DNA of 63,859 nucleotides, the filler included, from Basidiobolus ranarum (taxonomy: Eukaryota), in assembly GCA_040143965.1 (NCBI GenBank). It is 30 parts of 30 records of this genome, joined end to end, with 100 filler letters (N's around TTAATTAATTAA, not from the genome) between each part and the next. Parts side by side here need not be neighbours in the genome. Positions count along the whole stretch, not along the records: positions 32,048 to 34,078 come from JASJQH010003888.1; positions 34,179 to 36,209 come from JASJQH010003889.1; positions 36,310 to 38,339 come from JASJQH010003890.1; positions 38,440 to 40,469 come from JASJQH010003891.1; positions 40,570 to 42,598 come from JASJQH010003892.1; positions 42,699 to 44,726 come from JASJQH010003893.1; positions 44,827 to 46,854 come from JASJQH010003894.1; positions 46,955 to 48,981 come from JASJQH010003895.1; 22 more parts are not named here. One strand, given 5' to 3'. Position numbers and translations under genes: made by a program. How positions within the stretch are numbered: position 1 is the first letter of the stretch; each line of letters starts with the position of its first letter. The notes under the pieces were generated by a model, which saw nothing but the letters and a program-made list of their open reading frames with translations, was not told the DNA's origin and did no database searches. Shown here in pieces: positions 16,585 through 59,822 of this stretch.

Positions 16585-16795
16585 GAAAAGAATATTGTGG
16601 AAAAAAGACCTCCACCTGTGTCAGGGTGGTATTCTAGGTATAGCCAATCATTATCATGAGCTGATTCTGAGATAGTGTCACAGATGAGTCATAAGGGGAT
16701 TGATAAGAGTTTTCCTTTAATGGATGGCAATTTTGTCTACTATAAGATGTTTCTAAGCAATTTCATTACACCAAGTTTACCATCTGAAAGTTTCA

Positions 16796-29914: not shown

Positions 29915-31310
29915 CATATGATCACTTGCACCAGAATCTAGAATCCATACATCAGCAGAGTCATTTCCTGATTTAGAGGTTGCCATAAGTACATAGTGTT
30001 CATTTCCTCTTTTAGTGGTGTTATAGGCTTCCTTTTTCTTTGAAACCCATTTCTTCTATGATCTGCAGTAACATGCTATATGTCCCAGTTTTCCGCGTTT
30101 GTAACATTTAACAGTGCTCCTTTCTGGTTGGCTAGCTTAAGAATAAAATGCTTGTGTAGTTTTTGTTTCATCTGCAAGCTGCTTTTGTCTTTCTTTTTAA
30201 ATTCTTCTTGACATAAACAAGAGATCAGATAGTGCTGAGTGAGCTTATCCCCAATTGCTTCCAAAGTGAGTACAAGGGCTGATTATAATGGACTTGTTCC
30301 ATTGTGCCAGGATTTATTGGACCTTGGATCAATATATTAGAGTAAATGTGATTGAAATTGATCATGCTGGAGGGTGATGTAGAGTGCCAAATTGTGCTGC
30401 ATAAATTTTAGAATACTCTATCCAATATGATATATACAGCACAATCTGGCACTATGACAGAGAACAAGTCCAATATCTAAATAAAGGCATGCATATTAAT
30501 TCAAATTCCTACAGCAGTAAACCCAGTAATTTGCCATTCAAAAATTATATTTTGCAAAAATTGCCAGAAATTAATAATGCATGCCAAATATGTGGATCAA
30601 TATTTTAACATGTATGAATACCATTATAATACCATCTAGAAACCATCATCATACCATCTAAATCCCTGGCAGAATGCAAGCCACCAACATTGTGATGGTT
30701 CTCTGATGGTTGTGCAATTTAGAAGGGTTGATCCAATCCGGATCAAATTGATTTTATTTTGGTCAGGGTACAAGTGGCAAACATGTGGGTATTAGACAGC
30801 ATTTCATTAGAGAGACTATAGAGAATATGTTTATTGACTTAACTTATTGGTCTACAGAAGACAAGATTGCTGATATATTGACCATACTATCAGCTTTAAC
30901 AGAGATTTGAGAGAATTAGAACTGTCTTATTATTGGTTCATAAGACTATTTAGTTGAGGAAGAGTGTTGAAGTTGGCATTTTCTGAACACCTATACAGTC
31001 ATGTATAGTTTAGTATTTAATATCATATACTTCATTAAAATACAACCCATTATCTTCAATTGGAATTTACTTGGAATATTTTTACCATCTTGAAGGTTAT
31101 GAGATATATAGATTTTGCAAACTTGAGCTAGAAGCCCCAAGCTTAGCACACATATTCCTGGGACCTTCCTTGATAGACTTCATGTGCTAGTTTGTATACC
31201 TTTTGGCAAAATTATAAATGGCAAGTTTTTATTCACTAAATTAATAAGTGAAACCACCAATATCTCTAAATCTCCAAACCATTTCCAACAGGCTCTCAAA
31301 TACTTAAACA
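29915..31310. mobile_element. Nested cluster: copia gag-protease (minus), CMC terminus (~30430-30768), copia RNase H end + PPT + LTR-A (30965-31310)
   Basis: WILDSGASDHM on the minus strand; QHFIRETIE; GAGGAAGAG precedes TGTTGAAG. Confidence 0.85.
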
Positions 31311-32047: not shown

Positions 32048-34078
32048 AAATGCAAAGACTGGAAGTATTGGATTTTTATATATTCAAGTGGAATTTTGAA
32101 AAGATTTCTGCCTGATAAGTATTTGCAACATTGGGAGTTGTTTGTGGATATTGTTAATATATTCTTACGGCATCAACTCACATTGGCAGATCTCAGGCAG
32201 ATACAGTGACTTAGTGAAGATTTTGTAATTGGATATGAAAAACTTTGTTACAGGTTTAAAGAAGATAGACTGAAACTATGCTGGTATTCAATACATTCCC
32301 TGCTGCTTCTTTCACAATGCTTAGAGATTTTAGGCCTGTGCTAAACATTCTAGGAGTTCCCAATGGAGTGCACCTGTGGTGACATGATGCTCTGTGTGAA
32401 ATTGTCAGTATTACCATATGCTAATCTGATTATCAATGTATCAGCAAAATCAGTGATGGATGTGATGCAATGGGTTAAGGAGACTCCCAAGTATATTAAC
32501 CTGAAAACATAGGGCTCTTTTCAATGTGTTCACAGTTTTTGCATTGTTTGAGCACAATAACAACAATAAAGCCCAATCCATGGACACAGAGTAACTACCT
32601 CTATGAGTGGACTAATTTGCTTGTGTTATAATCTGACAGTATTTTTAGGAAAGCTTCAAGACAGACTTCTTGGTGAGATGGATCAAGATATGCAGTATTA
32701 TTGTTTTAGCCATGGGGTAATCTATTCCAGCAATGACATATCTACTTGTGGCAGGACTTTTGTTGACTGCAAGTTGGGGATATATTGACTGAATTCTTTA
32801 CGGAAATTTGCCAAAATCCTGTAGCTTATGATCATTGTGAGCAGTAACAAGGGTCAGCTATTTGCCAAGTGTCAGTAATATTCAAAATTTCAGATGTTTA
32901 GCAACTTTTCCACCATTAGTTTGCTGGTAACCCTAACAAAAATAAAATCAATTTGATCCGGATTGGATCCACCCTCTGAAATAGCAAATCCATCAGAGAA
33001 CCATCACAATATTGTTGGCTTGTATTCTGCCAGGGATTTTGATGGTGTGATGGTGGTTTCCTGATGGTATCTTAATGGTATTCATACATGTTGAAATATT
33101 GATCCTCAAATTTGGCATGTGTTATTCTATATCCAGCAATTTTTGCAAAAATATAATTTTCAAAAGGCAAATTACTGCGTTTACTGCTGTAGGGTTTTGA
33201 ATTAATATGCATGCCTTTATTTAGATATTTTAGGCTTTGTATTCCAGCCATAATGAGAATCAAAAAAATACAATAATCTTGTTGTGTTTAGTCTCTACAT
33301 ATGCATATACCTGATTGATCAGACATAACTCAACAACATTAATATGCTTTACCAGAAAACTAATGACAGAAAAACTGCTGAACATCTCAAATTTTGAAGG
33401 GCACTGACACTTGACATATAGCTGATTCTTGTTACCATTCACCATGTGAATAAGCTCTTATATTTTGGCACATTTCCATTAAGAATTCAGCCAATATATC
33501 CCTGACTTGTAGTCAACAAATGTCCTGCCACAAGTTGATGTGTCACTGCTTGAATAGATTACCCCAGGGCTAAAATGATAATACTGCATATCTCAATCTA
33601 TCTTACCAAGAAGTCTGACTTGCAGCTTTCCTTGAAATGCTGTTAGATTATTACACAAACAAATTAGTCCAAATATAGAGGTACACACTCTTTGTCTGTG
33701 GATTGGGCTTTGTAGCTGCTATTGTGCTCAAACAATGAAAAAACCCATGAGCACATTGAAAAGAGTCCAGTGTGGAAAGGCTAATATACTCTGGAGTCTC
33801 CTTGGCCCATTGCATTACTTCCATCACAGATTTTGCTGCTACTTTATTACTCAGATTAGCATATGGTGATACTGACAATTTCACATGCAGCATCATTTCA
33901 CCGCAGGTGCACTCCATTGGGAATTCCCATAATGTATAACAAGGGCCTATAAACTCTAAGCATTGTGAAAAATGCTACAGGGAGTGTATTGAAGACCAAC
34001 ATAGATTCAGTCTATCTTCTTTCAACCTGTAATAAAGTTTTTCATATCCAATTACAAAATCTTTGCACAGTTGCTGTA
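32048..34078. mobile_element. Two CMC transposase C-terminal halves in opposite orientation; the minus copy ends in TIR CCCTAACAAAAAT at 32931
   Basis: IHSLL, EFPME.TCG and PYANL motifs on both strands. Confidence 0.9.
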
Positions 34079-34449
34079 NNNNNNNNNNNNNNNNNNNNNN
34101 NNNNNNNNNNNNNNNNNNNNNNTTAATTAATTAANNNNNNNNNNNNNNNNNNNNNNNNNNNNNNNNNNNNNNNNNNNNTTCTCAAAACTTCTCCAAATCA
34201 TCTCAACTATTCACCCATGCTTAACAGCCATATTTGTTATGATCTAAGCATGTCCAATAGTCCTATTTTATAGTAAACTATAAATGGGTCCTATTCAATT
34301 TAATAAAACCTAAGTATCTAATTCACAAATCCAAATTTTGCCCAAAACACTTCCAAATCCCCTAGACACTTTTATCACCAACTTCTCTTTTTAGGAGATC
34401 CAATGGAATGAGATATCTGCCTGATTACAACTCTCACACTAGCCAAAAG

Positions 34450-35742
34450 GATCCTAAAAAAATACCTCCTATCTCAGGGTGGTATTTTAATTATAGCCCA
34501 TCAATATCATCAGCCGATTCTGAGATGGTGTCACAGATGAGTCATCAGGGGATGTACAAGATATTTCTGGTAATGGATGGCAATTTTAGTTTATTATAAG
34601 CTGTTTCTAAGCAATTTCATTGCACCAATATTACCATCAGAAAACTACAATGCCTTCTAAAAGCATTCAAAATCCAATACAAAATTGGCTTCTAAGCAAA
34701 AGCCTGCTGGCACAAAAGGAAAAAAATCAGTAAGAGCAGAGGGCTTAATTCATGAGCAGTCTAATGATCCACTTTCCACTTTGGAAGGCATTAACATGCC
34801 AGAAACTAACTCATGTAATGATGAAGCATTAATATATTTGCCAGATGTGTTCCCTTCCAGCAATAGTGCAAGTGGAGAGAATATAATCCCCCACTCACAT
34901 AGTAAATTGATAGTTGAGCAAAGTTCAACCATAACACCATTAAGACCATCAACTTCCAAAATGGCTGCTTTGCCCACTATTGAACAACCCTCCATAGAAA
35001 ATTTGGATAGAATTATTACAACAAGAGAATTGCAGGCAGAACACTGTAATGATTTGTATGCAATTATAAGTAAAAACTATGAAGTTGCTATACAGGCCAT
35101 GATAAGCAATAATGCCATAATATCGCAATTAATGCAGCATTTGGTTGCAACTAGTCAACAGTTAGAGAGTCACTCAACAATGATACAAGACCTCCAGAAT
35201 GCTGTACTTGAGCTACAGCAACATTCTGCTCCCTCCATCCATTCTCATATGGGATTTCAATCAATCCTATACCATACATATGAATGGCACCATGACAATC
35301 TAGCAGAGCAGAATATGTGTCGGACCATTAAGCCTACACAATGACCCAAAATTGCTGGGCACATGAAAGTAGAAAACTCATACAAAAACCAGCACACCAA
35401 AAGACACTGAATGTCAGAGCTGCCATCACTTGCTCTGATGATGAGTAGTTTAACATTTTGGAAACTGTGCAGAATCTTGCCCAAAATCACCTGGATTTGA
35501 GCCAATTGTGGAAAAACCAAAAACCATAATGGAACAAGTTCATTTCATGTGGCTTATCCTGGGATTCTGCAAGCAAATGGCAATTGGGCTAGTATAGGCC
35601 TATTAATGAAACATCTCAAAAATGTACACAATTATCGACTTGAAAAAGAAAGAAAAGCAGCTAAAGAAGTACTGAAAGAGCAGGAAGTTAGTAAACTCAA
35701 GGGAAAAGCAAAGGAGCCAGTGAGTTTAGGCTCTACTGTCCC
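34450..35742 (+). mobile_element. CMC divergent promoter and ORF2 (decayed)
   Basis: Collinear with ~51570-52869. Confidence 0.85.
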
Positions 35743-36209
35743 TGTTGGATAATTAATCTTTATTCAACATCATAGTTAACTTTAGTTATGATACATATAT
35801 CAGAAGCAGAAAGCAATGTATCTATAGCCCCTATATTCTAAATAGGAATATCTCTATATCTATACAACAAGTATGTCTTATTACCCCCACTTATCTATTA
35901 TATCTTATTACACAAACTCCTGAATATCTCAAACAATTGATTTACTTTTCTACTATATAAGTCACCATATACTCTTAAGAATAAAGTAACTAAAACACAC
36001 TATCATAAGTTGCTTCTAATACTCAAAGTCTACCCCCATTATGTCAAGATCCTCCAACATGGTAGCAGCAAGTGAATTAGAGTCTTCTTCCCAAAAGGAG
36101 ATTACTAATATACCAACATTCAATGGGGAAGATTTCCATGAATGGAAATTCAAGAAGCAACTTGTGCTTGAAGGGAAACATCTCTGGGAAGTAGTTCAAC
36201 CAGATGAAG
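35743..36209 (+). mobile_element. Ty1/copia family D 5' end: LTR 35743-36059, PBS TGGTAGCAGC, gag start
   Basis: TGTTGGA...TCCAACA ends; initiator-tRNA-like PBS; IPTFNGEDFHEWKFK..LVLEGKHLWEVV. Confidence 0.92.
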
Positions 36210-36849
36210 NNNNNNNNNNNNNNNNNNNNNNNNNNNNNNNNNNNNNNNNNNNNTTAATTAATTAANNNNNNNNNNNNNNNNNNNNNNNNNNNNNNNNNNN
36301 NNNNNNNNNCAACTATACTGTTGATCTAGTGTTGTTAGCACTACTTTACTCATTCCATACTACGGATGAAATCATAATTTAAAGTATTTAAGCTGTTGTC
36401 AGATACGCCTTGTGTTCAACCCAAATATCACATTAGCATAATGTATTGCAGTAAAGAGTAAATGTTAGGCATCTGTGATAAAATATCTTTCACGCAACCC
36501 TTTTACTATTATAAACAAATTAGTTAGCCTATATCTGGATTACTTTGGGTGTCTCTGACTCCAATTCTCTTGGTCCATAACCCAGGACCAATTTATCGCG
36601 AATGAATAATAATCTTAATGCTACTCCCAGTATGGCAATAAATGTTAACACCGATTCTGGTAGTAATATTGCAACTAAATATATTTCATGCTTCTGGTTT
36701 TCCGTGCATAGTGACTGCACAAATAGTAATGAGAATAATCTGGCTATTTTAGTCTAACTTTTATATGACTGATCATAATGTGATAGAATTACCATCGTGA
36801 GTGGTTTAAAAGATGACACTCTAGTGTAGTCTAGCACCAAGGCCAAGCA

Positions 36850-38339
36850 TTGTATTGACCCCAATAGTACTACAGGCTGGAGACACACTGATTCACAAAC
36901 CCATCAATCGCTATAGGTAGAGTTAAGGCTAGATTCATTTCTCATATTCTTTTCTTGCCGCTTTTATTCTCAGCAGTTCAAGGGAATATTTTTCTTTTGC
37001 TTTTACTGTTGAACCTAATTAAGGCGAGACATGGAATACTATTGTAGCACCTAACGCGTTTTAACAATCCACGTTAGTTATTAAGGAAAATCCAGTAGCT
37101 AATTGTGAAACGAGCTAGCCTTCATTCACTCAAACTCGATATAACTAGTGCACTCCAATGTGTACAACGCCAACTGGATATTCGTATTTGGATTCAATAG
37201 TGTTATTGTGGAAGCAGCAAAAGGCTAATATGTTCTTGGTGTGATTATCAGTCAAAAATAGGTTATAAAAATCGCTTTTCCACTTACAGTTCAGTATACA
37301 AACATCCACTACACTCTGGAACCATCTTACGACATCTCCGCTATCCAGTCTTTGACTAGTTGGTATTCCGAAGAAAGCTCTCCACCGGGGTAACCGGTTT
37401 CAAGTTCGCTGTTCCCCTTGTTGTCTTTGGAAATTGGTCACGAGGTGGACTCATGTAGCTTTATGAGCAGGGAACGCTACCTTTGGATCATTCATCATCG
37501 ACAGATAGAGTTTTCACGGACCATCATTCGATGTAGCAGCAATCAATTCTGAATAAAAGAGTGTTTGATAAAACTCGGATTTTTATTCATATTTTATGTA
37601 TATGCTATGAATAGAAGTAAACCTCTATGCTAATGAATTAGAGTTAAACTAGCATTTAATATACTATGCTACTGATGGAATGGAATACTGATGGAATGGC
37701 TATTAACGTAATGGCTAGTAACGTTAATGTTTGAGTTATTTTAAGATATACTTAGTATTCAACGCGAATAAACCGGTATATTACTAGTGTTGGCCCACGA
37801 TCCTGGCGCAATTTAACTCGTATAAGATAAATCTTGGTGCTATTCCTAATATGGTGATAAATGTAAGTCATGTTGAAATGGATAGTAACCCAATTTGGAC
37901 AATGCTCCAATTCTACTCTATTGACCCCAATAGTATTACAGAGAAGAGAAACTCTGGTTCACTTTATAACTTTAACTAGAGTTAAGATGAGACAAGTTAC
38001 CTCCTGTTTTGGTCTCAAGCGGTTTAAGGAAATATTTTCAATTTGAATTTACTTTTTAGCCCAATTCAGGCAAGCCATGGAGCTCTATTTCAGACATATC
38101 GCGTTTCAACATTATTCTCAGTTTGGCTGTATCAGTAACCATTGGGGGAAATCCAGTTGCTAATTCTCAAACGGGCTTGTCTCTATCTACTTAAACTCGA
38201 CACAACCAACATTTCACTCCAATATGGACAATACCAGTTCAATCTTGATATCAATCCCGATGCTCTGTATTGATTCAATAGTGCCACAGTAAAATTGGTA
38301 CAATGTGAATGTGTTCGTGGTGTAACTAACAGGCAAAAA
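36850..38339 (+). repeat. Diverged ~1.07-kb-period tandem duplication, probably decayed gene copies
   Basis: TATTGACCCCAATAGTA at 36853 and 37919; AAATCCAGT.GCTAATT at ~37087 and ~38149; CpG retained. Confidence 0.75.
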
Positions 38340-38439
38340 NNNNNNNNNNNNNNNNNNNNNNNNNNNNNNNNNNNNNNNNNNNNTTAATTAATTAANNNNN
38401 NNNNNNNNNNNNNNNNNNNNNNNNNNNNNNNNNNNNNNN

Positions 38440-39976
38440 GATGAAATCACCCAAATATAGATCATTGATCCAATACCAAAGTACTCACCATAAAGCTGAT
38501 GGAATTACCAATATGCTTGATGGATATCACTACCAGAATCTGAAAAGTCAGGGTTTCTTTAAGAACTTATATGATCATGTATTTGCATTGGCTGTTGGTG
38601 TTTTCTCACTAAGTGAATATACTATTGGAAAGGCTTGCTGGCCAATTATGTTAATTAACTTAAATCTTCCTTGTTTTGAACAGTATAAGAGTCACATTAT
38701 TTTGAAACTATCCATCATATCTGGACTTAAATCACCAGTGCTTATAGATAGTTTCTTGGAGCCTTTGATTGTGCAATTTGAATGATTATCTAATGTGGTT
38801 CAGATGTATGAGTATTTTATTATAGCTAATATTGGTGAGTGTATTAATTACACTCCTGCCATCAGTAAACTTGGAGCTTTTTGGGGGCACAATACACTAT
38901 CATGCTATAGATTTTGTCAAAGCAATGGAGTATACTCTATCAGGCATATGCATTACTACTATCCAAATATAGTACTAAACCCCATGATTTACCAACAAGA
39001 GCCTGCTCAGATTTCAATGTGCTCACTGATATCAATTTGCCACATAGTCAGTCTAACTTCAAACTTGGTATTAGCCATAAGCCTAAGATTATATTGCTAA
39101 AGGGGATCAGCCGGAGCCCAAGCTTCCCATTGGGCACTATACACTTGCTATTCAACAATATTTCAATACTCCCTGCTCAGCCATAAAGTGGAAAACTGAA
39201 TCAGACTGAGCCATTTGAGATAGGATCAAAGTTTGAACCAATTGTAATAATGCTTGAAAACATTAAGACACAGTCATATATTACCAGGACTCCCATGAAT
39301 ATCTACTCATTTAGGCATTTATTCAAATGCAAAGACTGGAAGTATTGTATTTGTGTATTTTCAAGTGGAATCTTGAAAAGACTTCTGCCTGATAAGTATT
39401 GGAAACATTGGGAGTTATTTGTGGATAGTGTTAATATTTTCTTATGGCATCAACTCACAATGGCAGACCTCAGGCAGATACAGCAACTTTGCAAAGATTT
39501 TGTAGTTAGATATGAAAAACATTATTACAGGTTTCAAGAAGATAGACTGAATGTATGCCAGTATTCAATACATTCCCTGCTGCATGTTACACGATGCTTA
39601 GAGACAACAGGCCCTTACTACAAATTCTGGGAGTTCCCAATGGAGGCACCAGTCATGAAATGGTGCACCACATGAAATCATCAGTTCTTCCATATGCTAG
39701 TCTGGTTAACAATGTATCAGCAAAATCAGTGATAGATACAATGCAATGGGTTAAGGAGACACCAGAGTATATTAACCTTCCAGCAAAGGGTTCTTTTCAA
39801 TGTGCTCACAGGTTTTTGCATTTTTTGAGCACAATAATAGCAACAGAACCCAATCCATGGACAGAGAGTAATTACCTCTTTAATTTGGACTAATTTGTTG
39901 TTGTGATAATCTGCAGGTATTTTCTAAGAAAGCTACAAGACAGACTTCTTGGAGAGATAAATCATGATATGCAGTA
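38440..39976 (+). mobile_element. CMC/EnSpm transposase central and C-terminal region; LTR-E (39977-40373) and LTR-C start (40414) follow
   Basis: CWPIMLINLNLP, DSFLEPL, FKCKDWK, IHSLLH, GPYYKFWEFPME. Confidence 0.9.
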
Positions 39977-40942
39977 TGTGATAAAAGTGTTTAGGGGATT
40001 TGGAAGTGTTTTGAACAAGATTTGGATTTGTGAATTAGACACTTAAGTTTAATTGAATTGAATATGTCCTATTTATAGTTTACTATGAAATAGGACTATT
40101 GGACATGTTTAGATCATAACAAACATGCCCGTTAAGCATGGGTGAAAATTTGAGGTGATTTGGAGAAGTTTTGAGAAAATAGTGAAAATTGGTAAAAGTG
40201 ATATAATTGATATTTCTATCAATTAGAGCAATAAACAGACGTTTTTGAATGACAGAATTGAGTACTAAATAATAAGAATATGGATAAACTAACTACTAAA
40301 TAATGAGTTGCTATTTACTCAATTTCAATATTCACACTCAACTAATTATTTTGTAATTCTCTTAAACCTGACTTATATCTTAATAACTCAAATTGTGCTT
40401 TAGCTAAAGGTTTTGTCATGATTCTGACCTTGGCATACTGATTTACTGCAAATGCAACTCTTCTATTATNNNNNNNNNNNNNNNNNNNNNNNNNNNNNNN
40501 NNNNNNNNNNNNNTTAATTAATTAANNNNNNNNNNNNNNNNNNNNNNNNNNNNNNNNNNNNNNNNNNNNATTTTTAAAATTCCTCAATAGAATCATGAGA
40601 CGCCACTTCCAGAATCCATTTCCATCGAATTTCTTTCGTTGGAAACATTTTTTTTCACTCGAATACAATGCTAACAAACTAATCCTGAATACAGATTATG
40701 GTAGAAGGAGTACCAAACTCAAAATCGTTGAGCTAAAAACGTATGAAAGATTTCCCGGATTCAATACCCGCCTTGGAATTTTCTAATGTTTGGCCACGTT
40801 ATCTCAAAGTAGTAATGTTCAATCTAGAGCGTGAGACTCATTGATTGCGAAATTCAATGGAGTACTGCATTGCCATGGATACATATATATCATGAGTGTG
40901 TCATCTGAATAGCCCCTCTCTCGCCACTCTTGGATTAACAAC

Positions 40943-41518
40943 ATGCGTTACACCGCCTTTATTGTAAGTATTGTCTCTGTGATGACGGCGCTCCACGGTG
41001 CCGTACTGAGTCAATCAGGAAATGGCACTCATGCTGTAACCCATTCAATTTCAACTCCAAGTTGCACGTTCAAGACTGAAGCATATCACGGCGCTAATTC
41101 TAGCTACATTGTTTCATTCTACCAATATATGATGGGTTCTTTTACAGCAGATTACCTTTCTAATAAGGGGAGTCTACCGTCCGCTATACCTACTACATAT
41201 TACGCTTACCATTCTTGTTTGCACAAGAAGTATTCTATGTTTGTACTCTTAAAAGAAAAAGATAACGTCACTGCTATAGGGAATGAAATGTTTGAAGCCC
41301 AGTTAAAAGCTACAAGTACCGATTCTTTATTTATGGCCAATTGTACCACTTTCAATATGGTGCTTAATACAGAATACACCGATGAAAAGACTGTCGAGTA
41401 CTTTTGTCCGGTTATCGATTTTCACCATGATTCTGATTCTAATGGTCATACAATCATCGCTAACTTTTTGCAGAATGGGCTCTATATATCCGCTCTAGTT
41501 TCATTGATGCTTCTATGA
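40943..41518 (+). CDS. 191-aa secreted, possibly GPI-anchored protein of unknown function
   Basis: Intact ATG ORF with hydrophobic N- and C-termini, 4 Cys, sequons NGT/NSS/NVT/NCT, TATA-like element at ~40884, CpG retained. Confidence 0.8.
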   Translation: MRYTAFIVSIVSVMTALHGAVLSQSGNGTHAVTHSISTPSCTFKTEAYHGANSSYIVSFYQYMMGSFTADYLSNKGSLPSAIPTTYYAYHSCLHKKYSMFVLLKEKDNVTAIGNEMFEAQLKATSTDSLFMANCTTFNMVLNTEYTDEKTVEYFCPVIDFHHDSDSNGHTIIANFLQNGLYISALVSLMLL

Positions 41519-42088
41519 CAACCTTCCTTTTGCCTGGAAAAATCTCAATGATATATAGTTGCTATCTAGACTGATGTATTTATAAACTATTTCGATGTCC
41601 ATCCATTATAAATTTACTCTAGTCCAAGCTTGGGCCTGCACCTCTACCCACTCGAACTCTCTCCATTTAACTATCATCAGGAAATCTATTATCAATTTTA
41701 ATGGCAAAATGATCGGAGTTTTGCATACAAAAAAAATGAGGCTAGACAAACTCAGGGTTGAGAATTGATCAAACACATTGATAAAGCTGAAAAATACTTA
41801 GGACTAATGCAGGTAAGTGAACTTTAAAACTATTTGACTAGTCATGGAGTAGGCTATTTGATGACTAGACTCAGCTAAATTTGAGTCCTACTCCATACGG
41901 TGTACTTTTTGAACCACTAGTGAAGGCCTCATGATATATTGATCTGCGTGATGCTTCTCTGGAAGTTCAGGTAATACTTTTAGGTCAGGTTATCATGGTC
42001 AATTGTTGATCGGCAGTAAACTCTGTACTATGGAGGATATAATAATGAGATGCTGAATGGCCTTTTAGTCTGACTCAATATCAGACAT

Positions 42089-42402
42089 TGCTGGATAATA
42101 AATCTTTATTCAACATCTTAGTTAACTTTAGTTATGTTACATATATCAGAAACAGAAAGCAACCTATCTATAGCCCTATATTCTGATTAGGAATATCTCT
42201 ATATCTATATAATCAGTATGTTCTATTACCCCTACTTATCTATTATATCTTATTACACAAACTCCTGAATGTCTCAAACAATTGACTTACTTCTTTGCTA
42301 TATAAGTCACCATATTCTCTTAAGAGTAAAGTAACTAAAACACTATCATAAGTTGCCTCTAATGTACAAAGTCTACCCTCATTATGTCAAGATCCTCCAA
42401 CA
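42089..42402 (+). mobile_element. Solo LTR-D with imperfect TSD (GACAT/GAAAT); LTR-A fragment follows at 42419-42598
   Basis: Full-length match to 35743-36059, with no PBS after it. Confidence 0.85.
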
Positions 42403-42699
42403 GAAATACAATAATATCTGTTGAAATTCACATTGCCTAATCACCAATATAGTCATCTATAGCTTAGTATTTAGCTATCTCATATTTCACTAAGATATTA
42501 CCCATTATTATCAATGGGAATTTACTTGGAATATTTTTACCAACTTGGAAGTTCTCAGATATATTGATTTTTAAAACTTGTGCTAGAAGTCCCAAGCTNN
42601 NNNNNNNNNNNNNNNNNNNNNNNNNNNNNNNNNNNNNNNNNNTTAATTAATTAANNNNNNNNNNNNNNNNNNNNNNNNNNNNNNNNNNNNNNNNNNNNT

Positions 42700-43251
42700 T
42701 TTAGTGAATGGGAATGGATACCTCACCAAGTGTTCCAGGTCATATACAACATCATAATCCTAATTTTGTTCATCGCCTACAGAGATGTTACTGATGGGTT
42801 TTGTGTTCGATCGGAACTCATCGCGATGAGTATTATCAATAGCTTGATGGATGTCTTCTTTTTCTACTACGACGAGTCTTGGGCCAATTGATTAGATCCA
42901 AATGGTTACCTTATCAACGTTGCATTCCTCTATCTCTTCACCTTCCAATACGAAATGATTATCAAACCCACCATGATAGCTCAGATATACCAGCCTACTT
43001 TGATTGTCAATACACGTTCTTCCAAAATGCCTCAATTAACACTCTGTATAGAATCTTTTGATTTCATACTACAGAGTTCCTATCTGATGGAGCAATTCAA
43101 GCTGTTTGCCACTAAAGATTTCTCCGTAGAGAATGTCTTGTTCTATCAGCGTTGCTTGAAATTTCGCCAAATAGCTGAAGAAGGAACTGGATCATGTGTA
43201 TTAGCCGAGACCTTTGATATTTACGACGTATTCATTGCATACGATACATAG
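42700..43251 (+). pseudogene. Transmembrane RGS-domain protein fragment (7TM-RGS-like), disrupted
   Basis: TM segments with DVTDGFCVRSEL, in frame with the RGS motif FKLFATKDFSVENVLFY..IYDVFI; TGA at 42889 and an early stop at 43249. Confidence 0.75.
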
Positions 43252-44593
43252 ATCTAACTAATTGAGCGCCTAACACGTTTGAAACCGGATCCATGGAATG
43301 AGGAATTTCCTTTTCCAATGGCTATGCCAAATATTGTAGAGAATACTTATTCAAGGAATAAAGAAGGATTCTACCAGAGTTGATTAACACTCCGGCTAAA
43401 TTACAAGCGACTTGCCTAGTATATTCTTGTATATATTGTTCTTCATCTGTACTTGGTGAAAACATCAATCGGCCCAAGTATATATTGACAGTATCATCAT
43501 AGAGTCGCTGAGGATGAACGACTAAATCCGAAGTATGACTATCGATATGGCTATTTTCGTTTAGTTATTTAAATAATAAGCACATATTTATCCTTAGTAA
43601 ATGAAATTCGATCTCCGGGATTATAACTATATTATCAAAGGATAGCGCGTCAGGCTGCGACAAATATTTCTGTCTAGGGTCTACATGGTGTATTATAATC
43701 GAGACATTAACATAGAAAAATCGTATAAGTTCTATCTGTGACTCCTTGCTTAGTGATGGTAAACAAAAACTGCAAAGTAATAGTCTTCTTCTAACCATCG
43801 CATATTCATGTCTAAATGTCACTTATCTACTCCGAATCACATTATATTAAACAGCAAGTAAATTCTTCACAGTCGGGATCAATAATGTTTTGTCAACTCC
43901 AAAAATTAAGCAAATTTTCCTCTTCTTCACTTAAACTTCAATCTACTTTATTAAGTCACAATATGAATAAAACTGTTGAAATTCCCATTAAAAGATTGCA
44001 AGAACCTAAAGGTTCAGAACAAGAAGTAAAAAATTGAAATCAAGCTTGGAATCAGTCAGTATGATATTTCAACCATGATTGACAAGAAGCGCACAACTGG
44101 GCAAAGTGCAATTGGTAGAATAGCTGAAACTGGTACCTTTGACATTTTCAATTAGCAATCTGGCGTACTCCTCGCTTTAAGATTTCCATCCACATTACTC
44201 CGACATTAATACTTCCAATTGAACTTATTAATAAGCTTAACCTTTTGTCCAACTGAAGCTTATCATTTTGGGTATTTTAACCGAGTAGCTAAGCATAAAA
44301 GCCAGTCATATAAAGGCCAGTCATGTGATAACCAGTGAGCCAAATTCATCATTTGGCGGATTACAAATAGCTTACTAATAAATTACTAGACTGTTCCGAG
44401 CCACGTTCCTTGATGCCAATCAAGATTTTGCTTCCTCAAGCACCGCCGCTTCCGTCAAGATTTAAATAGCTCAACTTTTTACTGTTGCATTAGTTCCTTA
44501 GCAATATCACGCAGACTCACCTGGATTAATTGATTTCGCTGTGACCTTTTTCATAAAACTTCGTTGACTACTTACGGTTTTTACGCACTTTCA

Positions 44594-44726
44594 ATGGAGG
44601 ACACACACATCACACAGTCGGTGCAGATACAGCACATCCGTAATGCCACGGTGAAAATCAACTACGCACATAAGACCTTCCTTGTTGATCCCATGCTTGC
44701 AAAGAAGGGTGCATACCCGGGCTTTG
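44594..44726 (+). CDS. Bacterial-type MBL-fold metallo-hydrolase, N-terminus (runs off contig)
   Basis: IQHIRNATVKINYAHKTFLVDPMLAKKGAYPGF matches the IRNAT...FL.DPML..KG.YP.F start of YddR-like bacterial MBL hydrolases. Confidence 0.85.
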
Positions 44727-44826
44727 NNNNNNNNNNNNNNNNNNNNNNNNNNNNNNNNNNNNNNNNNNNNTTAATTAATTAANNNNNNNNNNNNNNNNNN
44801 NNNNNNNNNNNNNNNNNNNNNNNNNN

Positions 44827-46854
44827 CTTGCAATATCTATATAAGCCCCATGTATTCCTTGATCAGACCTCAGTCTGATCAACACCAGTTATTAATAAAG
44901 ATTCTTGCCAAAGTATCTTCCTTGTCCAGTCTTGTCTTGTCTTGTCTTGTGGTCTACACCCAAGTACTCTCCTGCCTTCTAGCCTCTTATTGTTGTTTCC
45001 AGTCCTTGTCCAGTTCCTAATTGTCACAGGTGCACAGGAATGCTTTTTTCTCCATTGTTTTGGTTTGCTCAATTTGAATCATTGGATCAGGAGAAAATTG
45101 ATTTAGTCATCATCTGAGGTCAATTTGGGTGAATATTGTTCATTTACATTAAACAAAGCATCACTGGCCTTGAATAACTTGGAAATTTTGGTATTGTAGA
45201 GTCTGTAGGTCTTAGTTTGAGTACAATAGCCCAGAAATATGCATTTCTCACTTATTGGATCAAATTTAGACTAATTTTTGGTCATAATTTTGACATAAGC
45301 AGTACATCCCAAGATCCTCAAATGTTTTACATCAGGTTTAACTCCAAACCAAGCTTGACATGGTGTAGTGTTAGACATAGTTCTAGTAAAACTCCTATAC
45401 TTCAGATGTACAGCTGTAGCAGCAGATTCTGCTCAAAAGTTATGAGATAAATTTGGGCATTGATGATAGATCTTGTCATTTCAATTATAGTCCTGTTAGC
45501 TCTTCCACAACTCCATTCTGTTGAAGTTGTAGTTTCTTGCTTAAATCCAAGAACTTTGTAAAAGAGCTTAAATAGTGTTGAAGCATATTCTCCATAGTTA
45601 TTAATATCAATTTTCTTGATTTTGTTGAAATTAGCTGTGCCTAAACACCTATTTAGTAACATATATAGCTTAGTACTTAGTTATCCTATAATTTGCTAAG
45701 ATATAACCCATTATTTTCATTTGGAATTTACTTAAATATTTTTACTGACCATGAAGTTCACAAATATATAGATTCTTCACTCTTATGTTAGAAGCCCCAA
45801 ACTGTGCACATATGTTCTGGGAACCTTTCTTAACACATTCTTCATGTCAGTTCACTTACATCTTGACAAAACCATACATGTCAACTCTCTACTAAATAAA
45901 TCAATTAGTGAAAACCACCAATTCCTCTAATTCTCCAAACCACTTCCAACAGGCTCCCAAATACTTTAACAGATTTTAGTTCCAGTTTCTTTCTCCACAA
46001 GTGCTTTGAAATCTCTAAAGATACAGAGTGCTTTTCTTGTCATTCTATAAAGTAGACCTAAGTGTATCTTGTATAATAATCAATAAATGTGATTAAATAT
46101 CTTTTTCTAGATAGAGATAAATAATGTATAGGACCGCACAAATCTGCATAAATCAGATCCAATTTTTTGTCAGATTTGATTATCTAGAGCTATTGAATGG
46201 TTGCCTGGCTTGTTTACCATATATACAACCCTCACAAATTTCTATTTTGGTTGGGGGGTTGATTTGAATTCCTGACATTGGGCAATTTTTGATCATATTG
46301 CTAAAATAATCAAATCAATATGGCCAAATTGGTTATGCCATGATTGAATTTATTCTTGATTGAATAACCTATATTTACACATATTACTCTTGGAGAATAT
46401 ATAAGTTTGTATTAGTTCTGATCCTTTTCTCCCAAAGATAAATAATTTCCATTTTGAACAGTGATGTTTCATCCTGACTTATCAAAATTGAACTTTAGCC
46501 CTTGTGAGATTGCCTTGCATACAGATATTAAGTTCATGGCAATATCTGGAACAGGTAGTAAATCCTTGAAAGAATATATTTTCTCTTCAGCAGCTCCAGT
46601 TAAATTGACTTGAGTTATTCCCATTCCAATAGCATCCAATGTGCAGTCATCTCCCATGAAAACCTTTCTAATTGGGATTTCTTCATATTCCACAAACCAA
46701 TGTTTTTCATTTGTGAAATATTGGAAGGTTTCAGAATCAATATACCACATCTGGGAATCCTTGTTGGTAGTCATAGATAGAGCTGATATGAACAAGTGAT
46801 CTTCTGTTGTAACCAAACTCCCAGATTTGGTACATTTTTCTTGTTTTGATATTC
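44827..46854 (-). mobile_element. Copia protease-integrase (minus, decayed) with an LTR-C fragment (44827-45028, plus sense)
   Basis: WYIDSE, DLCGP, RANRTIIEMTRS, SKFDP motifs. Confidence 0.9.
45623..45971 (+). mobile_element. Solo LTR-A with perfect 5-bp TSD GATTT
   Basis: GATTT at 45618-45622 and 45972-45976 flanks TGTTG...TTAACA. Confidence 0.95.
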
Positions 46855-46954
46855 NNNNNNNNNNNNNNNNNNNNNNNNNNNNNNNNNNNNNNNNNNNNTT
46901 AATTAATTAANNNNNNNNNNNNNNNNNNNNNNNNNNNNNNNNNNNNNNNNNNNN

Positions 46955-47762
46955 AAAAAGTTGCACATGATTGGCTACACACTCAGAGAACTATGGATTA
47001 ACACCTGTGCAAAAATTGCGACTCAAATTTTACGCATTTACCACTGGAGTGCTAATTTGTAATCTTTAAAGTCCCTAGTGTCTTTGATATATTCTCCTGA
47101 ATATTTTTATAGAGTTCTTGATACCCAAGGTTTAGCTCATATCCAATACAAATTTGTATCAATATCTCTGTCAATACCAACCATTGTATTAATGTTGCTG
47201 AATCAACATTCTTCCAGCTATCTGGCAGATACCCTGCAATATTGTTCCACTCTGTATTAAGTTCTTCCCAGATATCTTCACAGTCAATACCAGACTGAAT
47301 GTCAAGTTGAATGTTCTCCTTCTGAAGCCACTTTCTGTACACTTGCACTGCATTTTTCCCTTCATACTTTTGCAAATACTCCTCAGGCACATTTACTACT
47401 TTTATACATCCTTATAGTGTGACACTACTGAGGGTGCTTAGCAGTGTTTATGTGGCTATTTGTTTGGCTTTAACTTTGGGGGTAATTTCAACATTTTGAA
47501 AAGTACCAGTTGAGGTTGGAGAGCCATGAGTATCATTTGCTGATGTTTTAGCTTGTTGATAGGTTCCAGGTGCTGGATAAACTTCCAAATTTAGCACTCT
47601 TCCAACTGGTGTACCTGGTTTCATGGTGAAATTAAGCTTTTTTACCAGTATATCTGACTCTGGAAGTACAGATCTTTGTGATGGTGTGAAGAATATGGTA
47701 AGTGGGACAGTAGAGCCTAAACTCTCTGGCTCCTTTGCTTTTCTCTTGGGTTTACTAACTTC
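46955..47762 (-). mobile_element. CMC ORF2 C-terminal part and 3' flank
   Basis: Overlaps ~52810-53235 and 50080-50885; stop at 47052. Confidence 0.85.
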
Positions 47763-48810
47763 TGTCACAATAAGAACCTAGACAAGGACTGGAAACAGAG
47801 AAAAGAGGCTAGAAAGTGGGAGAGTACTTGGGTCTAGACCACAAGGCAAGACAAAACAAGACTGGACTGGGATGATACTTTGGCAAGAATCTTTATTGAT
47901 AACTGGTGTTGACCAGACTGAGGTCTGATCAAGGAAAACAGGCTGCTTATATAAATATTGAAGGGTGAAACATAATATACTCAATAGAGAATACATTGTT
48001 GAAAGTTTGAGTGTCAGGGTGTTGGGGACTACAAGGACCAATACAAAGAGGGATGATGTAAGGATGATCAGGTGAACTTCCATGGAAGGTCTTGGTAAAA
48101 TATACTATATGTGGGATGATGTGATTGGTTAGGTTTCAAGGATTGTTCCAAAGAACATGACTTCCAAATCAGGTAATCTGGATGAACTAGCACAAGATTG
48201 CCAAGAAAGGATGGCACAGCAGATATGCTATCATAATCTAATAATCAAAGAGTTCCATTTGCAGTAGATGAGTATGCTGAGATCAGAATCATGACAGTAT
48301 CCTCTTATTTAGTGATGGCATCCAGACATCATAGGGCCAGGTTTTTCTGGGTAGGCTTCATGAAACTCCTGGCAAAGTTCCTTAGAGATAGAAAGATTTG
48401 TTGCTGACTCCCATTATTGATCATTTGTTGAGTATCCCTTCCAGTCCACTAAATATTGAAATTTATGTTGATAAATTCTAGAATTTAGAATTTTGCTAAC
48501 TTCATATTCAGAGTGTTCTTCTACTTTAACTGCTGGGGGTGGCTCAATGGATTGGCCATGAAGGGTATTTCTTGAATGTGGCTCTAGGAGTGACACATGG
48601 AATACATTGTGATCTTTGAAATGGTCTGAGAGTTCATGGCAGAAGGCTGATGAATTGATTTGCTTAATAATCTTAAAAGGCCCTAGTTTATGATCAAGTT
48701 CATCACAAGGTCTAGTGGTCTTGATATTTTCATGGATTAGGCATACATAATCTTCTGGCTTGAGATCTGGTTTTGGCTTTCTTTTCTTATCAGCAAAGTG
48801 CTTGTGTTAG
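47763..48810 (-). mobile_element. Ty3/gypsy chromovirus 3' end: integrase C-terminus and chromodomain, PPT, 3' LTR-C (47763-48296)
   Basis: LGPFKI, IHNVFHVSLLEP, EYEVSKILNSR..KFQYLVDWKGY; AAATAAGAGGATAC precedes TGTCATG. Confidence 0.93.
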
Positions 48811-48856
48811 GATTGAGCATGCTCCAACCTGGATATTAACTGTTTATGGATGTCTT

Positions 48857-48981
48857 TTAGGAAAGTGGCATATCCGGATTGGGCTCGTTATGCGGTGGTT
48901 GGCTATCATTATTACCATTACCATCACTGCTACCACCGCCATTACCATTATCACTACTACCACCACTATTGGCATTGTTAT
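48857..48981 (-). CDS. Probable Gly/Ser/Asn-rich C-terminus of a host gene (NNANSGGSSDNGNGGGSSDGNGNNDSQPPHNEPNPDMPLS*)
   Basis: Frame open from the contig edge to TAA; triplet periodicity; CpG retained. Confidence 0.45.
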
Positions 48982-49081
48982 NNNNNNNNNNNNNNNNNNN
49001 NNNNNNNNNNNNNNNNNNNNNNNNNTTAATTAATTAANNNNNNNNNNNNNNNNNNNNNNNNNNNNNNNNNNNNNNNNNNNN

Positions 49082-49197
49082 TTAATAGTAAAAATTCTAC
49101 TAGTTATACTCAATCAGCAGGTAATCGTTATTTTACGAGTTCCTCAGAGACTACACGCGAGAAATCTTTCAACTTTAACCTCTTTTACGAACACCCT
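49082..49197 (+). other. Mitochondrial-type group I intron core fragment (probable NUMT)
   Basis: Q element AATCAGCAGG (49112) and R element TCAGAGACTA (49144) in the right order; SSETTRE..FNF peptide typical of intron-encoded ORFs. Confidence 0.75.
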
Positions 49198-49309
49198 ATT
49201 TCATAGTCAACTATAACTAGGACATATTCAATTCAATAAAAATTAAGTGTCTAGTTCACCAATCCAAATATTGTCCAAAACACTTCCAAGTCCCCTAAAC
49301 ACTTTCATC

Positions 49310-51108
49310 AAGGAAAAAAAATGTCAAGAAGAGAGGACTTAAATGATGAGCAGTCTAGCAATTCACTATCCACTTTGAAAGGCATTGGGATGCCAGAAAC
49401 TAATGCAAGTAATGATGAGGCATTGATCAATTTACCTGGTGTGTTCCCTTGAGCCAATAGTGCAAGTGAAGAGATTGTAATCCTCCAATTATATATCAAA
49501 TCAAAAGTTGAGTAATGTTCAACAGACACCAACAAGATTATCAACTTGCAAAATTGCTACTTTGCCAACTATTGAACAACCCTGCATTGAATATTTGGAT
49601 AGAATTATTACAATAAGGTAATTGCAGGCAGAACACTGAGATGATTTGTATGCAATCACAAGCAAGAACTAAAAAGTTGCTGGACAGGCCATGACATGCA
49701 ATAACACCGCAATATTTTAATTAATACAGCATTCTGAAGCAACTAGGCAACAGTTAGAGAGTCACTCAACAATGATACAAGATCTTTGCAAAGCTGTACT
49801 TGAGCCACAGCAACATGCTGCTCTCTCTATACATTGTCATACAGGATTTCTATAAATCCAACACCATACATATGAACTTCACCATGATAATCTAGCAGAG
49901 CAAAATATGTGTTGGACTATTAAGCTCTAAAAGAAATTTGAGGAATGTTATAGTAGGAAAGGCAACACAAATTTATTCCATTTCAGATTAACCACTAGTT
50001 TAGCATCATAAAATTGTCAAGGTAGATTTATCTTAATGAATTTTTTCAGTTTCAGGAGTGAAATTTCATGATCTCACAAAATAGTTGCACATGATTGGCT
50101 ACGATATCAGAGAACTGTGGATCAACACATGTGCAAAAAATGTAACTCAAATTTTACACCAATACCACTTCAACGCTAATTTTTCACCTTCAAAATCCCT
50201 AGTCTCTTTGATATATTGTCCTTAATATTTTTATAGAGTTCTTCATATACAAGGTTTAGCTCATACCCAACATGAATTTGTATCAATATCTCCATCAAAG
50301 CCCACCATTGTATCAACATTGCTAAGTCAACATTCTTCCAGCTATGTGGTGGATACCCTGCAATATTGTGCCACTCTCTATCAAGTTCTTCTCAGAAATT
50401 TGCAAGGTCCAAACCAGACTGAATGTCAAGTTGAATGTTCTTCATCTGAAGCCACTTTCTGCATACTTGCACTGCATTTTTCCCTTCATACTTTCAAAAA
50501 TACTCCTCAAGCACTTTGACTATTTTTGTATGTCCTTGTGGTGTAACACTACTGAGGGTGCTTTGTGCTGTTTGTGTGACTTTTTGCTTGCCTTTACCTT
50601 TGGGCCTTATTTCAACACTTTGAAAGGTACCAGTTGAGGTTGGAGAGCCATCAGTTTTATTTGCTGATGTTTTGACTTGTTGAGAGATGCCAGGTGCTGG
50701 AAAAACTTCCAAATTTAGCACTCTTCCAACTGGTGCACCTGGTTCCATGGTGAAATTAAGCTTTTTTGCCAGTATATCTGACTCTGGAATTTCAGATCTT
50801 CATAATGGTGTGAAGAATTTGGTAAGTGGGACAGCAGAGCCCAAACTCACTGGCTCCTTTGCTTTTCCCTTGGGTTTACTAACTTCCTGCTCCTTTAGTA
50901 CTTCTTAACTGCTTTACTTTCCTTTCCAAGTTGATAATTGCTTACATCTTTGAGATGTTTCAGGAATAGGCCTACACTAGCCCAATTGCCATTTGCTTGC
51001 AAAAACCCATGTAAAGCCACATGATATAAGTCAAGAACCCTCAGAGTAACACCTGGTTTTTGGTTTTTCCACACTTGACTCAAATCCAGGTAATTTCAGG
51101 CAAGATTC
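49310..51108. mobile_element. CMC ORF2 (+, 49310-49924) interrupted by an inverted copy of the ORF2-side terminus and ORF2 (-, 49925-51108)
   Basis: Decayed TIR CTCTAAAAGAAAT at 49925; its flank aligns with 59712-59822. Confidence 0.85.
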
Positions 51109-51208
51109 NNNNNNNNNNNNNNNNNNNNNNNNNNNNNNNNNNNNNNNNNNNNTTAATTAATTAANNNNNNNNNNNNNNNNNNNNNNNNNNNNNNNNNNNN
51201 NNNNNNNN

Positions 51209-53235
51209 TAGCAGCAAGTCCTCAAAGTTGTCTGGACTTACTGGTTTGACCAAAGTTGCATTTTGACCTACATCATTCTGGTCATATAACTGTGGTAACT
51301 CTATGGTATCTTGACTTTTGCCAGTGTTACCAAAACTTTGAGGCAAACTACAGTCAGTGGACTCAATAGGCAAAACTAAACTCAATTTAGTACACTTATT
51401 ACTGTTCTTATACACCATGCTTTGTGCAGCTGGTGGCTTTGTACAGTGACTGTACTTGTGATTATTTTTTCTATAAAGCATCTGGCTTTCAAAGTGCAAG
51501 AATTTGTGACAAAAATAGCAGGGCTACTTTAAACATTTGTGTTGTGGCATGAAAAGGATATTGTAGAAAAAAGAACACCTCACATGTAAGGGTGGTATTT
51601 TAGGTATGGCCCATCAATATCATCAGCTGATTTTGAGACAGTGTCACAGATGAGTCATCAGGGGATTTACAAGATATTTATGGTAATGGATGGCAATTTT
51701 GGTTTATTATAAGCAGTTTCTAAGCAATTTCATTATACCAAGTTTACCATCTGAAAATTTCAATGCCATTCAAAAAGTGCTCAAAATCTGAGTCAAAATC
51801 AGCTTCCAAGTCAAAGCCTGCTGGCACAAAAGGAAAAAAACCAACAAGAACAGAGGACTTAATTGATGAGCAGTCTAGCAATGCACTATCCACTTTGGAA
51901 GGCATTAACATGCTGGAAACTAACTCAAGTAACAAGGAAGCATTAACCAATTTACCAGATGTGTTCCTTTCCAGCAGTAGTCCAAGTGAAGAGATTGTAA
52001 TCCCCCAATTACATATTAAATCAATAGTTGAGCTAAGTTCAACCAAAACACCGTCAAGTCCATCAACTTCCAAAATAGCTACTTTGCCTACTATTGAACA
52101 ACCCTCCATAGAAAATTTGGATAGAATTTTTACAATAAGGGAATTGCAGGCAGAACACTGTAATGATTTGTATGCAATCATAAGTAAAAACTATGAAGTT
52201 GTTATACAGGCCATGACAAGCAATAACTCCGCAATATTGCAATTTATGCAGCATTTGGAAGCTACTAGTCAACAGTTAGAGAGTCACTCATTAATGATAC
52301 AAGACCTTCAGAATGCTGTTCTTAAGCTACAGCAACTTGCTGCTCTCTCCATTCATTCTCTTACAAGATTTCAGTTAATCCCACACCATACATATGAAAG
52401 TCACCATGACAATCTAGCAGAGCAAAATATATGTTGGACTATTAAGCCTACACAATGACCCAAAATTGCTTGGGCACACAAAAGTCTAAATCTCATAGGA
52501 AAACTGGCAGACCAAAAGACTCTGAATGTAAGAACTGCTGTCACTTGCTCTGATGATGAGTGGTTTAACAGTTTGGAAACTGTGCAGAATCTTGCCCAAA
52601 ATCACCTAGATTTGAGTCAATTGTGGAAAAACCAAAAACCAGGCATTACTCTGAAAGTTCTTGACTTATTTCATGTGGCTTATCCTTGGTTTTTGCAAGT
52701 AAATGGCAATTGGGCTAGTTTAGGCCTATTGATCAAACATCTCAAAAATGTACGCAATTATCAACTTCTGCCAGAAAGAAAAGCAGCTAAAGGAATACTG
52801 AAGGAGTAGGAAGTTAGTAAACCCAAGGGAAAAGCAAAGGAGCCAATGTGTTTAGGCTCTACTGTCCCACTTACCGAATTCTTCACACCATTATGAAGAT
52901 CTGCAATTCCAGAGTCAGATATACTGGCGAAAAAGCTTAATTTCACTATGGAACTGGGTACACCAGTTGGCACGGTGCTAAATTTGGAAATTTATCCAAC
53001 ACCTGGCACCTCTCAATGAGCCAAAACACCAGTAAATAGAACTCACAGCTCTCCAACCTCAACTGGTACTTTTCAAAGTGTTGAAATTAGTCCCAAAGGT
53101 AAAGGTAAGCAAAAAGCCGCACAAACACTGCAAAGCACCCTCAATAGTGTCACACTACATGGATGTACAAAAATAGTCAAAGTGCACAAGGAGTATTTTC
53201 TAAAGTATGAAGGGAAAAATGCAGTGCAAGTATGA
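51209..53235. mobile_element. CMC element core: transposase start (-, ATG 51550), 212-bp divergent spacer, ORF2 (+, from 51763)
   Basis: Same arrangement at 16584/16796; best-preserved ORF2 copy (231-aa open stretch). Confidence 0.88.
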
Positions 53236-59711: not shown

Positions 59712-59822
59712 AAAATCAAATCTAACTTGACAATTTTATGGTGGCAAGTAGACAGTCAATCCCAAATGGATTAAAATTGTGACGGTTTTCTTACAATAAC
59801 AATCCTCAAATTTCTGTTAGGG
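59712..59822 (+). mobile_element. CMC terminus on the ORF2 side, ending ATTTCTGTTAGGG, inserted in copia pol
   Basis: Aligns with 49925-50035 (reverse); the copia frame breaks at 59823. Confidence 0.8.

Follow-up and report, generated by a model that had tools for sequence, protein, structure and literature searches.

A window of 63,859 nucleotides of Basidiobolus ranarum DNA (assembly GCA_040143965.1), composed of 30 unlinked contigs of 2,024–2,041 bp each with N-spacers between them, was found to hold the dispersed pieces of a transposable element with a consensus length of 5,203 bp. The element harbours two genes in head-to-head orientation, one for a Tnp2-type transposase and one for a protein of no recognised family (ORF2), enclosed by terminal inverted repeats (TIRs) that begin with CCC. 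Very probably, it represents a decayed, high-copy family of cut-and-paste DNA transposons of the CACTA/EnSpm (CMC) superfamily, in which the two genes would play the roles proposed below. It is a new family or a variant within that superfamily and not a novel system. An earlier reading of the same DNA, made from the sequence alone (hereafter the sequence-only reading), had proposed a ~5.2-kb CMC/EnSpm-type transposon with a Tnp2 transposase and a head-to-head ORF2, and both the consensus and the detection of the PF02992 domain bear this out.

Linkage, copy number and decay of the element

Pieces of the element are present in 13 of the 30 window contigs. Sixteen fragments, amounting to 14,257 bp or 23% of the window, together cover all 5,203 consensus positions at 81–93% identity, and none of the 30 contigs carries a full-length copy. 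The consensus was built stepwise, starting at the left end and extending through contigs of the window and copies from the source assembly (65 Mb, 13,754 contigs), with 7–40 sequences per step; a later round, concerned with the ORF2 frame, comprised 478 de-duplicated fragments. The coordinates of the span assigned to the element by the sequence-only reading (32931–53235) hold, whereas the span itself is a composite, since it crosses ten unlinked contigs and includes unrelated DNA.

The absence of a whole copy from the window contigs and the nested or rearranged state of many copies might suggest that unrelated fragments had been tiled into an artificial 5.2-kb unit. This explanation can practically be dismissed, because a single contig (G000:C7907, copy L366) carries a collinear, 86% identical copy of 5,214 bp with both TIRs, which is broken by stops and frameshifts. 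Linkage of both TIRs to the two-gene core, on which the sequence-only reading had made its proposal depend, is thus provided by L366 without long reads. Moreover, copy L121 (G000:C7645) runs from the left TIR as far as position 5134, four internally deleted copies keep both ends, and an independent transposase (P0003, an open frame of 698 aa, 91% identical over 685 aa) is encoded on a contig of 5,233 bp.

Searches with exact end patterns returned at least 741 right and at least 589 left matches (backwards controls, 0), and first-look candidate counts were 1,241–1,838; the family is estimated at one to two thousand fragments. No intact copy was present among the fetched genomic copies. Divergence outside CpG positions averages 7.2% (median 6.8%, range 0.7–20%, 340 fragments), 45% of the CpG positions are changed and a CpA bias is absent. 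From these values we infer a long period of amplification followed by methylation-driven decay. A fragment of a sister family (L052:431-1328) shows 71% DNA identity to the transposase gene, and no closer copy of that family was found among 40 scored.

Insertion of the element into itself was observed for 107 of 329 sampled ends, in a sample that leans to repeat-rich contigs, with 160 loci chosen for A/T flanks; such self-nesting helps to explain the fragmented assembly. Nested insertions recur at consensus positions 911–917, 3359–3371, 4486 and 4587 (loci L017, L028, L201-L204, L015, L048, L053, L079, L055, L059, L002 and L037), which points either to hot spots of insertion or to compound copies that were duplicated. 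Internal fragments in the window include 34456..35742 (+ strand, consensus 3000–4299, spacer and ORF2), 46955..47762 (− strand, consensus 4241–5048, the predicted C-terminal helical domain of ORF2), 7323..8457 (+ strand, consensus 980–2116), an ORF2 fragment at 4393..4609 (− strand, consensus 3337–3552), and 14972..17008 (+ strand, consensus 1366–3438), which joins the transposase core, the spacer and the start of ORF2.

Transposase, ends and classification

The transposase gene starts at consensus position 2981 on the minus strand and encodes 878 aa once a 58-nt GT-AG intron is removed. The length of ~880 codons given by the sequence-only reading is therefore right, while the intron that it requires is absent from that account. 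The intron is predicted from the sequence, P0003 diverging from the consensus directly after the donor site; in the window it would lie at 33631..33688 (− strand), next to exon 2 of a broken copy (33218..33630, − strand, ends approximate, stop at consensus 287). The Cys/His-rich N-terminus is found at 51209..51550 (− strand, predicted start codon 51550–51548). It is followed by the spacer between the two start codons at 51551..51762, whose length of 212 bp and divergent arrangement agree with the sequence-only reading, and which is presumed to act as a bidirectional promoter.

Stop-free genomic copies match PF02992 (Transposase_21/Tnp2) with E-values of 1.8e-16 and 4.8e-15, and P0003 with 1.9e-16, the scores being 55.8–60.4 bits against a cut-off of 28.6. 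Of 8,000 candidates scored, nineteen proved to be relatives of the transposase; the best of those with a name are Tnp2 proteins of Rhizoctonia and Ceratobasidium with 25–31% identity. No sequence match was found in the PDB. Residues D318, D402, CRFC, HSLLH and E667 align with the fungal Tnp2 proteins; in the catalytic core of another broken copy (38440..39977, + strand) they lie at 38597, 38849, 38906, 39571 and 39643, respectively. The enzyme hence has a DDE triad with C(2)C and H(3)H between the second D and E.

The TIRs are 13 bp long and imperfect, CCCTAACA(A/G)AAAT, with 12 of 13 positions matching between left and right. Sharp boundaries were seen: 34 left ends and 39 right ends begin at CCC, and immediately outside CCC the flanking sequences of different copies show no relationship. 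CCCTA is kept, position by position, in 31–33 of the 34 left ends and is also the right-end consensus. The termini listed by the sequence-only reading were all recovered. The left TIR at 32931..32943 (+ strand) belongs to a copy inserted in another copy (consensus 418–1301 at 32930–32048), and reverse copies end at 8635, 29278 and 30768 (one mismatch). The first and last of these are left-end fragments (8564..8635 and 30472..30768, both − strand); the left end at 29278-28913, within 28913..29814, is nested in a spacer/ORF2 fragment (29281–29814). The intact right end occupies 59712..59822 (+ strand), with its TIR at 59810–59822. A decayed right TIR is located at 49925, in a copy (49925..51108, − strand) that comprises the 3' part of ORF2, with its stop near 50176, and right subterminal motifs at 50008 and 49967, and that is itself nested in another copy (49310–49925).

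Motifs of the type CCGTCA occur in both orientations, five in the left 200 bp and two in the right 200 bp, i.e. seven in 400 terminal bp versus three in 4,803 interior bp; in none of 2,000 shuffles did any GC-containing 6-mer reach seven. The left subterminal array at 32990..33078 (+ strand) has, in the consensus, two forward and three reverse motifs, which are CpG-decayed in this copy.

The flanking DNA is AT-rich at the first three positions, and TA adjoins only 21 of 101 ends. Five same-contig spans contain both ends of the element, but only in one (L180) do the two flanks belong to a single host copy. L180 displays a 4-bp target-site duplication (TSD), and both copies of the four bases deviate from the host consensus in the same two ways. 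Among 21 opposite-end pairs examined within −15 to +20 bp, an offset of 4 bp was seen three times (L180, one targeted and one untargeted pair) and 3 bp twice, while the single pair with a 2-bp offset has non-matching bases. Offsets of 7 and 17 bp (three each) all involve a single cluster, composed of three left ends at consensus 911, and do not count as TSDs. Of six targeted partner searches four gave matches and two were blank. A profile-symmetry test of 55 nested sites gave no informative TSD signal, and the base symmetry of the flanks alone is compatible with 2 or 3 bp. Owing to the clean duplication of L180 and the offset counts, a TSD of 4 bp is the best reading and the most likely one, 3 bp or a mixture being the next candidates.

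CMC transposases are defined by a DDE triad with C(2)C and H(3-4)H between the second D and E, and the TSDs of the CMCT assemblage span 2–5 bp (PMC12730594, as far as the available part of that report goes). The element has the PF02992 domain, this set of motifs, TIRs of the C(A/C)C type and subterminal repeats, and its TSD (4 bp in L180, 4 or 3 bp in cross-contig pairs, all few cases) falls within the range. According to the accessible parts of the published descriptions, its closest structural counterparts are the CCC-ended CACTA-related (TRC) elements published in 2006, represented by SmTRC1 and by elements of Tribolium and Aedes, which share a PF02992 transposase and CCC-starting TIRs; the Tribolium element is ~5.2 kb long and its TIR starts with CCCTA (PMC1636069). 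TRC elements, however, have 2-bp TSDs, and their accessory proteins arise from alternatively spliced transcripts of the transposase strand (PMC1636069), whereas the best TSD of the Basidiobolus element is 4 bp and its second gene is separate and divergent; the lack of a 2-bp TSD is not a final result. The same paper notes fungal relatives of TRC, the ends of which it does not characterise (PMC1636069).

Plant En/Spm-CACTA elements resemble the element in their Tnp2 protein, in imperfect TIRs of 13 bp, in subterminal repeats that are asymmetric and lie in both orientations, and in a second protein of ~600 aa without similarity across families; they differ in their CACTA ends and in a TnpA from the same transcription unit as TnpD (PMC2613891, in part). 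Their TSD is 3 bp, an offset also given by two cross-contig pairs of the present element, as against three pairs at 4 bp, among them the only same-contig case. Neither the CACTA/CACTG termini nor the shared transcription unit of plant CACTA elements sensu stricto is found here. Among fungal elements, the CMC-EnSpm transposases of Rhizoctonia and Ceratobasidium are the closest annotated ones, as stated above. Cryptococcus CNIRT6 differs by its CACTG end and single annotated gene, and rust EnSpm elements by CAC ends, a 3-bp TSD (4 bp being the likelier value here) and the TET/JBP gene that they may carry; two Cryptococcus CMC elements have been described (PMC12810828, in part). The TET/JBP cargo of TET-bearing fungal EnSpm elements was not detected in Pfam scans of ORF2 pieces and relatives. 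Chapaev, Mirage, Plavaka, ESTA and CNEST share the DDE triad with C(2)C and H(3-4)H and the TSD range of 2–5 bp. Chapaev elements have 4-bp TSDs. Repbase has merged Chapaev and Mirage into EnSpm (PMC4455052, in part). Plavaka elements have TGT or CATCA ends, and ESTA and CNEST have TA duplications (PMC12810828 and PMC12730594, in part), while neither such termini nor a fixed TA duplication occurs in the present element and its transposase scores as Tnp2.

Since the ends, the ends' CCCTA variant included, were known by 2006 (PMC1636069), huge CMC-EnSpm expansions in Basidiobolus genomes, counted by a domain search with PF02992, were reported in 2017 (PMC5751038), second proteins of plant CACTA families are mutually unalignable (PMC2613891) and fungal EnSpm families with extra genes have been described (PMC12730594), all as far as the available text of these reports goes, the element is regarded as a new family or variant. 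The suggestion of a novel system is therefore not upheld, and CCCTA ends are rejected as a sign of novelty; that the family itself is undescribed, as had also been suggested, is probable. No published description of the structure of a Basidiobolus EnSpm family, or of a head-to-head EnSpm element, was found in a search that did not extend to Repbase, Dfam and subscription journals. The features not found in print by that search are the separate divergent gene, which was under selection, and the probable 4-bp TSD, and these mark the element as a modest variant.

It could be argued that, with its CCC ends, 4-bp TSD and divergent accessory gene, the element stands at the head of a CMCT lineage of its own and is not an EnSpm family. 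In favour of this, its ends, its probable TSD and the arrangement of its genes all depart from those of plant CACTA, its nearest annotated transposases share only 25–31% identity, and the naming of new CMCT lineages continued into 2025–26 (PMC12810828 and PMC12730594, in part). Such a status seems improbable in view of the PF02992 score above the curated cut-off, this being the domain that defines CMC-EnSpm in fungi (PMC5751038), the 2–5 bp span of CMCT TSDs (PMC12730594) and the previously known CCC ends (PMC1636069), again judging from the accessible parts of these sources.

Several points nevertheless weigh against an assignment to CACTA/EnSpm with the gene roles proposed here. The placement is one by domain, motifs and ends; the termini differ from CACTA, and ORF2 does not arise by splicing of the transposase unit. 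The other four of the five same-contig spans, L366 included, have no TSD and their flanks are unmatched, so that a clean TSD comes from one copy, the cross-contig pairs being split evenly between 4 bp and 3 bp (two each) over considerable noise, in which even same-end pairs, impossible as true pairs, pile up at 4, 5 and 7 bp. The intron, the start codons and the expression of both genes are predicted. Finally, ORF2 has no sequence or structural link to any DNA-binding family, its models being of low confidence.

ORF2 and its possible role

ORF2 is a single exon with its own start at 51763, on the strand opposite to the transposase, and occurs in all long copies. Its consensus frame spans 585 codons, the maximum in 500 shuffles being 194; the length of ~585 codons anticipated from the window alone persisted without a stop after more copies had been added to the consensus. 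Codons 1–490 are present at 51763..53234 (+ strand), in a copy with four stops whose frame is cut by the contig end. The protein has a basic start, a Ser/Thr tract, a heptad helix at approximately 130–190 and a conserved core at approximately 196–340 (52348–52783). A division into two genes at codon 233 was considered and rejected, as the stop there results from CpG decay and natural copies read through it.

For the analysis of selection, CpG sites and sites covered by fewer than 15 copies were left out, and variants at a frequency of at least 20% were taken as marks of active sub-lineages. Such variants in ORF2 comprise 10 non-synonymous and 11 synonymous changes (ratio 0.27, p=0.003), and those in the transposase 14 and 12 (ratio 0.33, p=0.006), versus 19/1 and 16/1 in antisense and shifted control frames. 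Rare variants give a ratio of about 1 and are thus neutral, as copies should be once inserted. During the active phase of the element, both ORF2 and the transposase gene were subject to purifying selection.

Only five relatives of ORF2 were found among 1.8 billion representatives. Three of them, 81–90% identical, are hypothetical proteins of Basidiobolus ranarum at NCBI, and the two others (41–44%) share the heptad helix and the core at 196–340. The divergent relative P0024 has 131 genomic matches at no more than 53% identity, and all 30 loci fetched map to the element; hence no separate host gene was seen. The scarcity of relatives, together with the lack of a match to any known transposon protein, would suit a captured passenger gene with no part in transposition. 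This view is quite improbable, since it is opposed by purifying selection on lineage-level variants equal to that on the transposase, by the single exon and its presence in all long copies, and by the P0024 loci.

In accordance with the description of ORF2 as unrecognised in the sequence-only reading, no family or fold was identified in Pfam, PDB or fold searches. Pfam scans of ORF2 pieces and relatives returned only weak coiled-coil families and neither Transposase_23 nor Transposase_24, and a search among longer proteins gave no match (0 of 5,699 candidates). In the PDB sequence search the best hit was an engineered LRR at 2.7e-4, which is not credible. Searches of the ESM Atlas gave unnamed fungal clusters at 0.86–0.89, below the 0.9 line and thus a lead only, a second search gave nothing, and metagenome scans yielded no relatives. 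Two structure models of low confidence (pLDDT 54 and 52) predict an all-helical protein with long low-complexity linkers. The best fold matches of these models reached Z 4.9 (rmsd 4.0, 78 aligned) and Z 6.0 (rmsd 5.3, 111 aligned); the Zeste DNA-binding domain (Z 4.0) was tied with noise, BEN and Myb-SANT-MADF, considered as candidate accessory domains with a helical DNA-binding fold, gave no match above background with the low-confidence model, and Foldseek returned nothing at E<=0.001 in PDB or viral libraries. These blanks are not proof of a new fold.

DDE transposases of the CACTA/EnSpm family operate by cut-and-paste. In the mechanism that we propose, both genes would be transcribed outward from the 212-bp spacer, and the transposase would cut at the CCC ends and insert the element at AT-rich targets with a short stagger, most likely of 4 bp. 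ORF2 would be the functional counterpart of plant TnpA, its conserved helical core binding the subterminal CCGTCA repeats and its heptad helix pairing the ends or recruiting the transposase, and host CpG methylation would eventually have silenced the copies and driven their decay. The TnpA of En/Spm binds subterminal repeats, is required alongside TnpD and also has a regulatory function (PMC2613891, in part). Because the element combines subterminal repeats with a selected, basic, predicted helical second protein, the scheme fits, and a TnpA-like role of ORF2, argued by analogy, is slightly favoured.

The same element might instead employ ORF2 as a chromatin or anti-silencing factor for escape from host methylation, with no role in end synapsis. 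The strong CpG decay speaks for methylation pressure, the CCGTCA motif contains a CpG, and accessory anti-silencing genes are known from other transposons, namely TET/JBP in fungal EnSpm and other DNA transposons and a silencing regulator in plant Vandal elements (PMC12730594, in part). This function nevertheless seems rather unlikely, as Pfam scans of the ORF2 pieces revealed no TET/JBP, methyltransferase or other enzyme domain and the models predict an all-helical protein with long low-complexity linkers. As TnpA regulates too (PMC2613891, in part), the anti-silencing and TnpA-like functions overlap.

Other repeats of the window and biological significance

Two insertions were noticed within copies of the element. 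One, of ~280 bp in L121 (6981–7261), resembles a solo long terminal repeat (LTR) with TG...CA inverted ends and a 5-bp duplication. It carries a complete tRNA-Ser(AGA)-like gene (minus strand), and part of the insertion matches 61836–61946 of the window at 91%. The other, of ~1,070 bp (L133:1250-2320, G000:C1820), has TG...CA-like ends and a 5–6-bp overlap and is probably another solo LTR. Decayed Ty1/copia-type pieces with integrase and reverse transcriptase-like frames are located at 59839–61729, where the right end of the element adjoins, and at 17213–19105, 19245–21279 and 25680–26140. In several contigs the element directly adjoins members of a further repeat family (26500–27044, 27782–28913, 47762–48296; 82–87%); a frame at 48414–48806 looks like a Ty3/gypsy integrase end with a chromodomain, and we presume the family to be gypsy-derived.

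A dispersed repeat of ~350 bp, present in at least seven contigs with 72–86% similarity, occurs at 56828–57175, 45623–45971, 63189–63535, 30965–31310, 58105–58434, 11831–12147 and 13074–13410. Inverted, 89% identical gene fragments lie at the two ends of one contig (21380–21757 and 23037–23414) and presumably derive from a glutamate 5-kinase-like gene. The coding-like segment at 2142–2610, unidentified, is directly duplicated at 2804–3272 (90%), and a stretch of 1,655 bp is common to two contigs with 95% identity (10697–12349 and 12890–14543), either a recent duplication or an allelic pair.

While it is not a new kind of system, the element provides ends, genes and a probable TSD for one of the CMC-EnSpm families behind the transposon load of Basidiobolus, for which only domain counts were found in print. 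Fungal CACTA accessory proteins have barely been described, and ORF2, being single-exon and separately encoded with a candidate binding motif, is testable. It is possible, if tentatively put, that the element belongs to a Basidiobolus-centred lineage of CCC-ended EnSpm transposons with 4-bp TSDs, in which the TnpA role would have passed to a separate, divergent gene for a new family of methylation-sensitive proteins that bind DNA at the subterminal CCGTCA repeats. If so, the intact relative bearing P0003 would offer a compact two-gene system for the function of CACTA accessory proteins.

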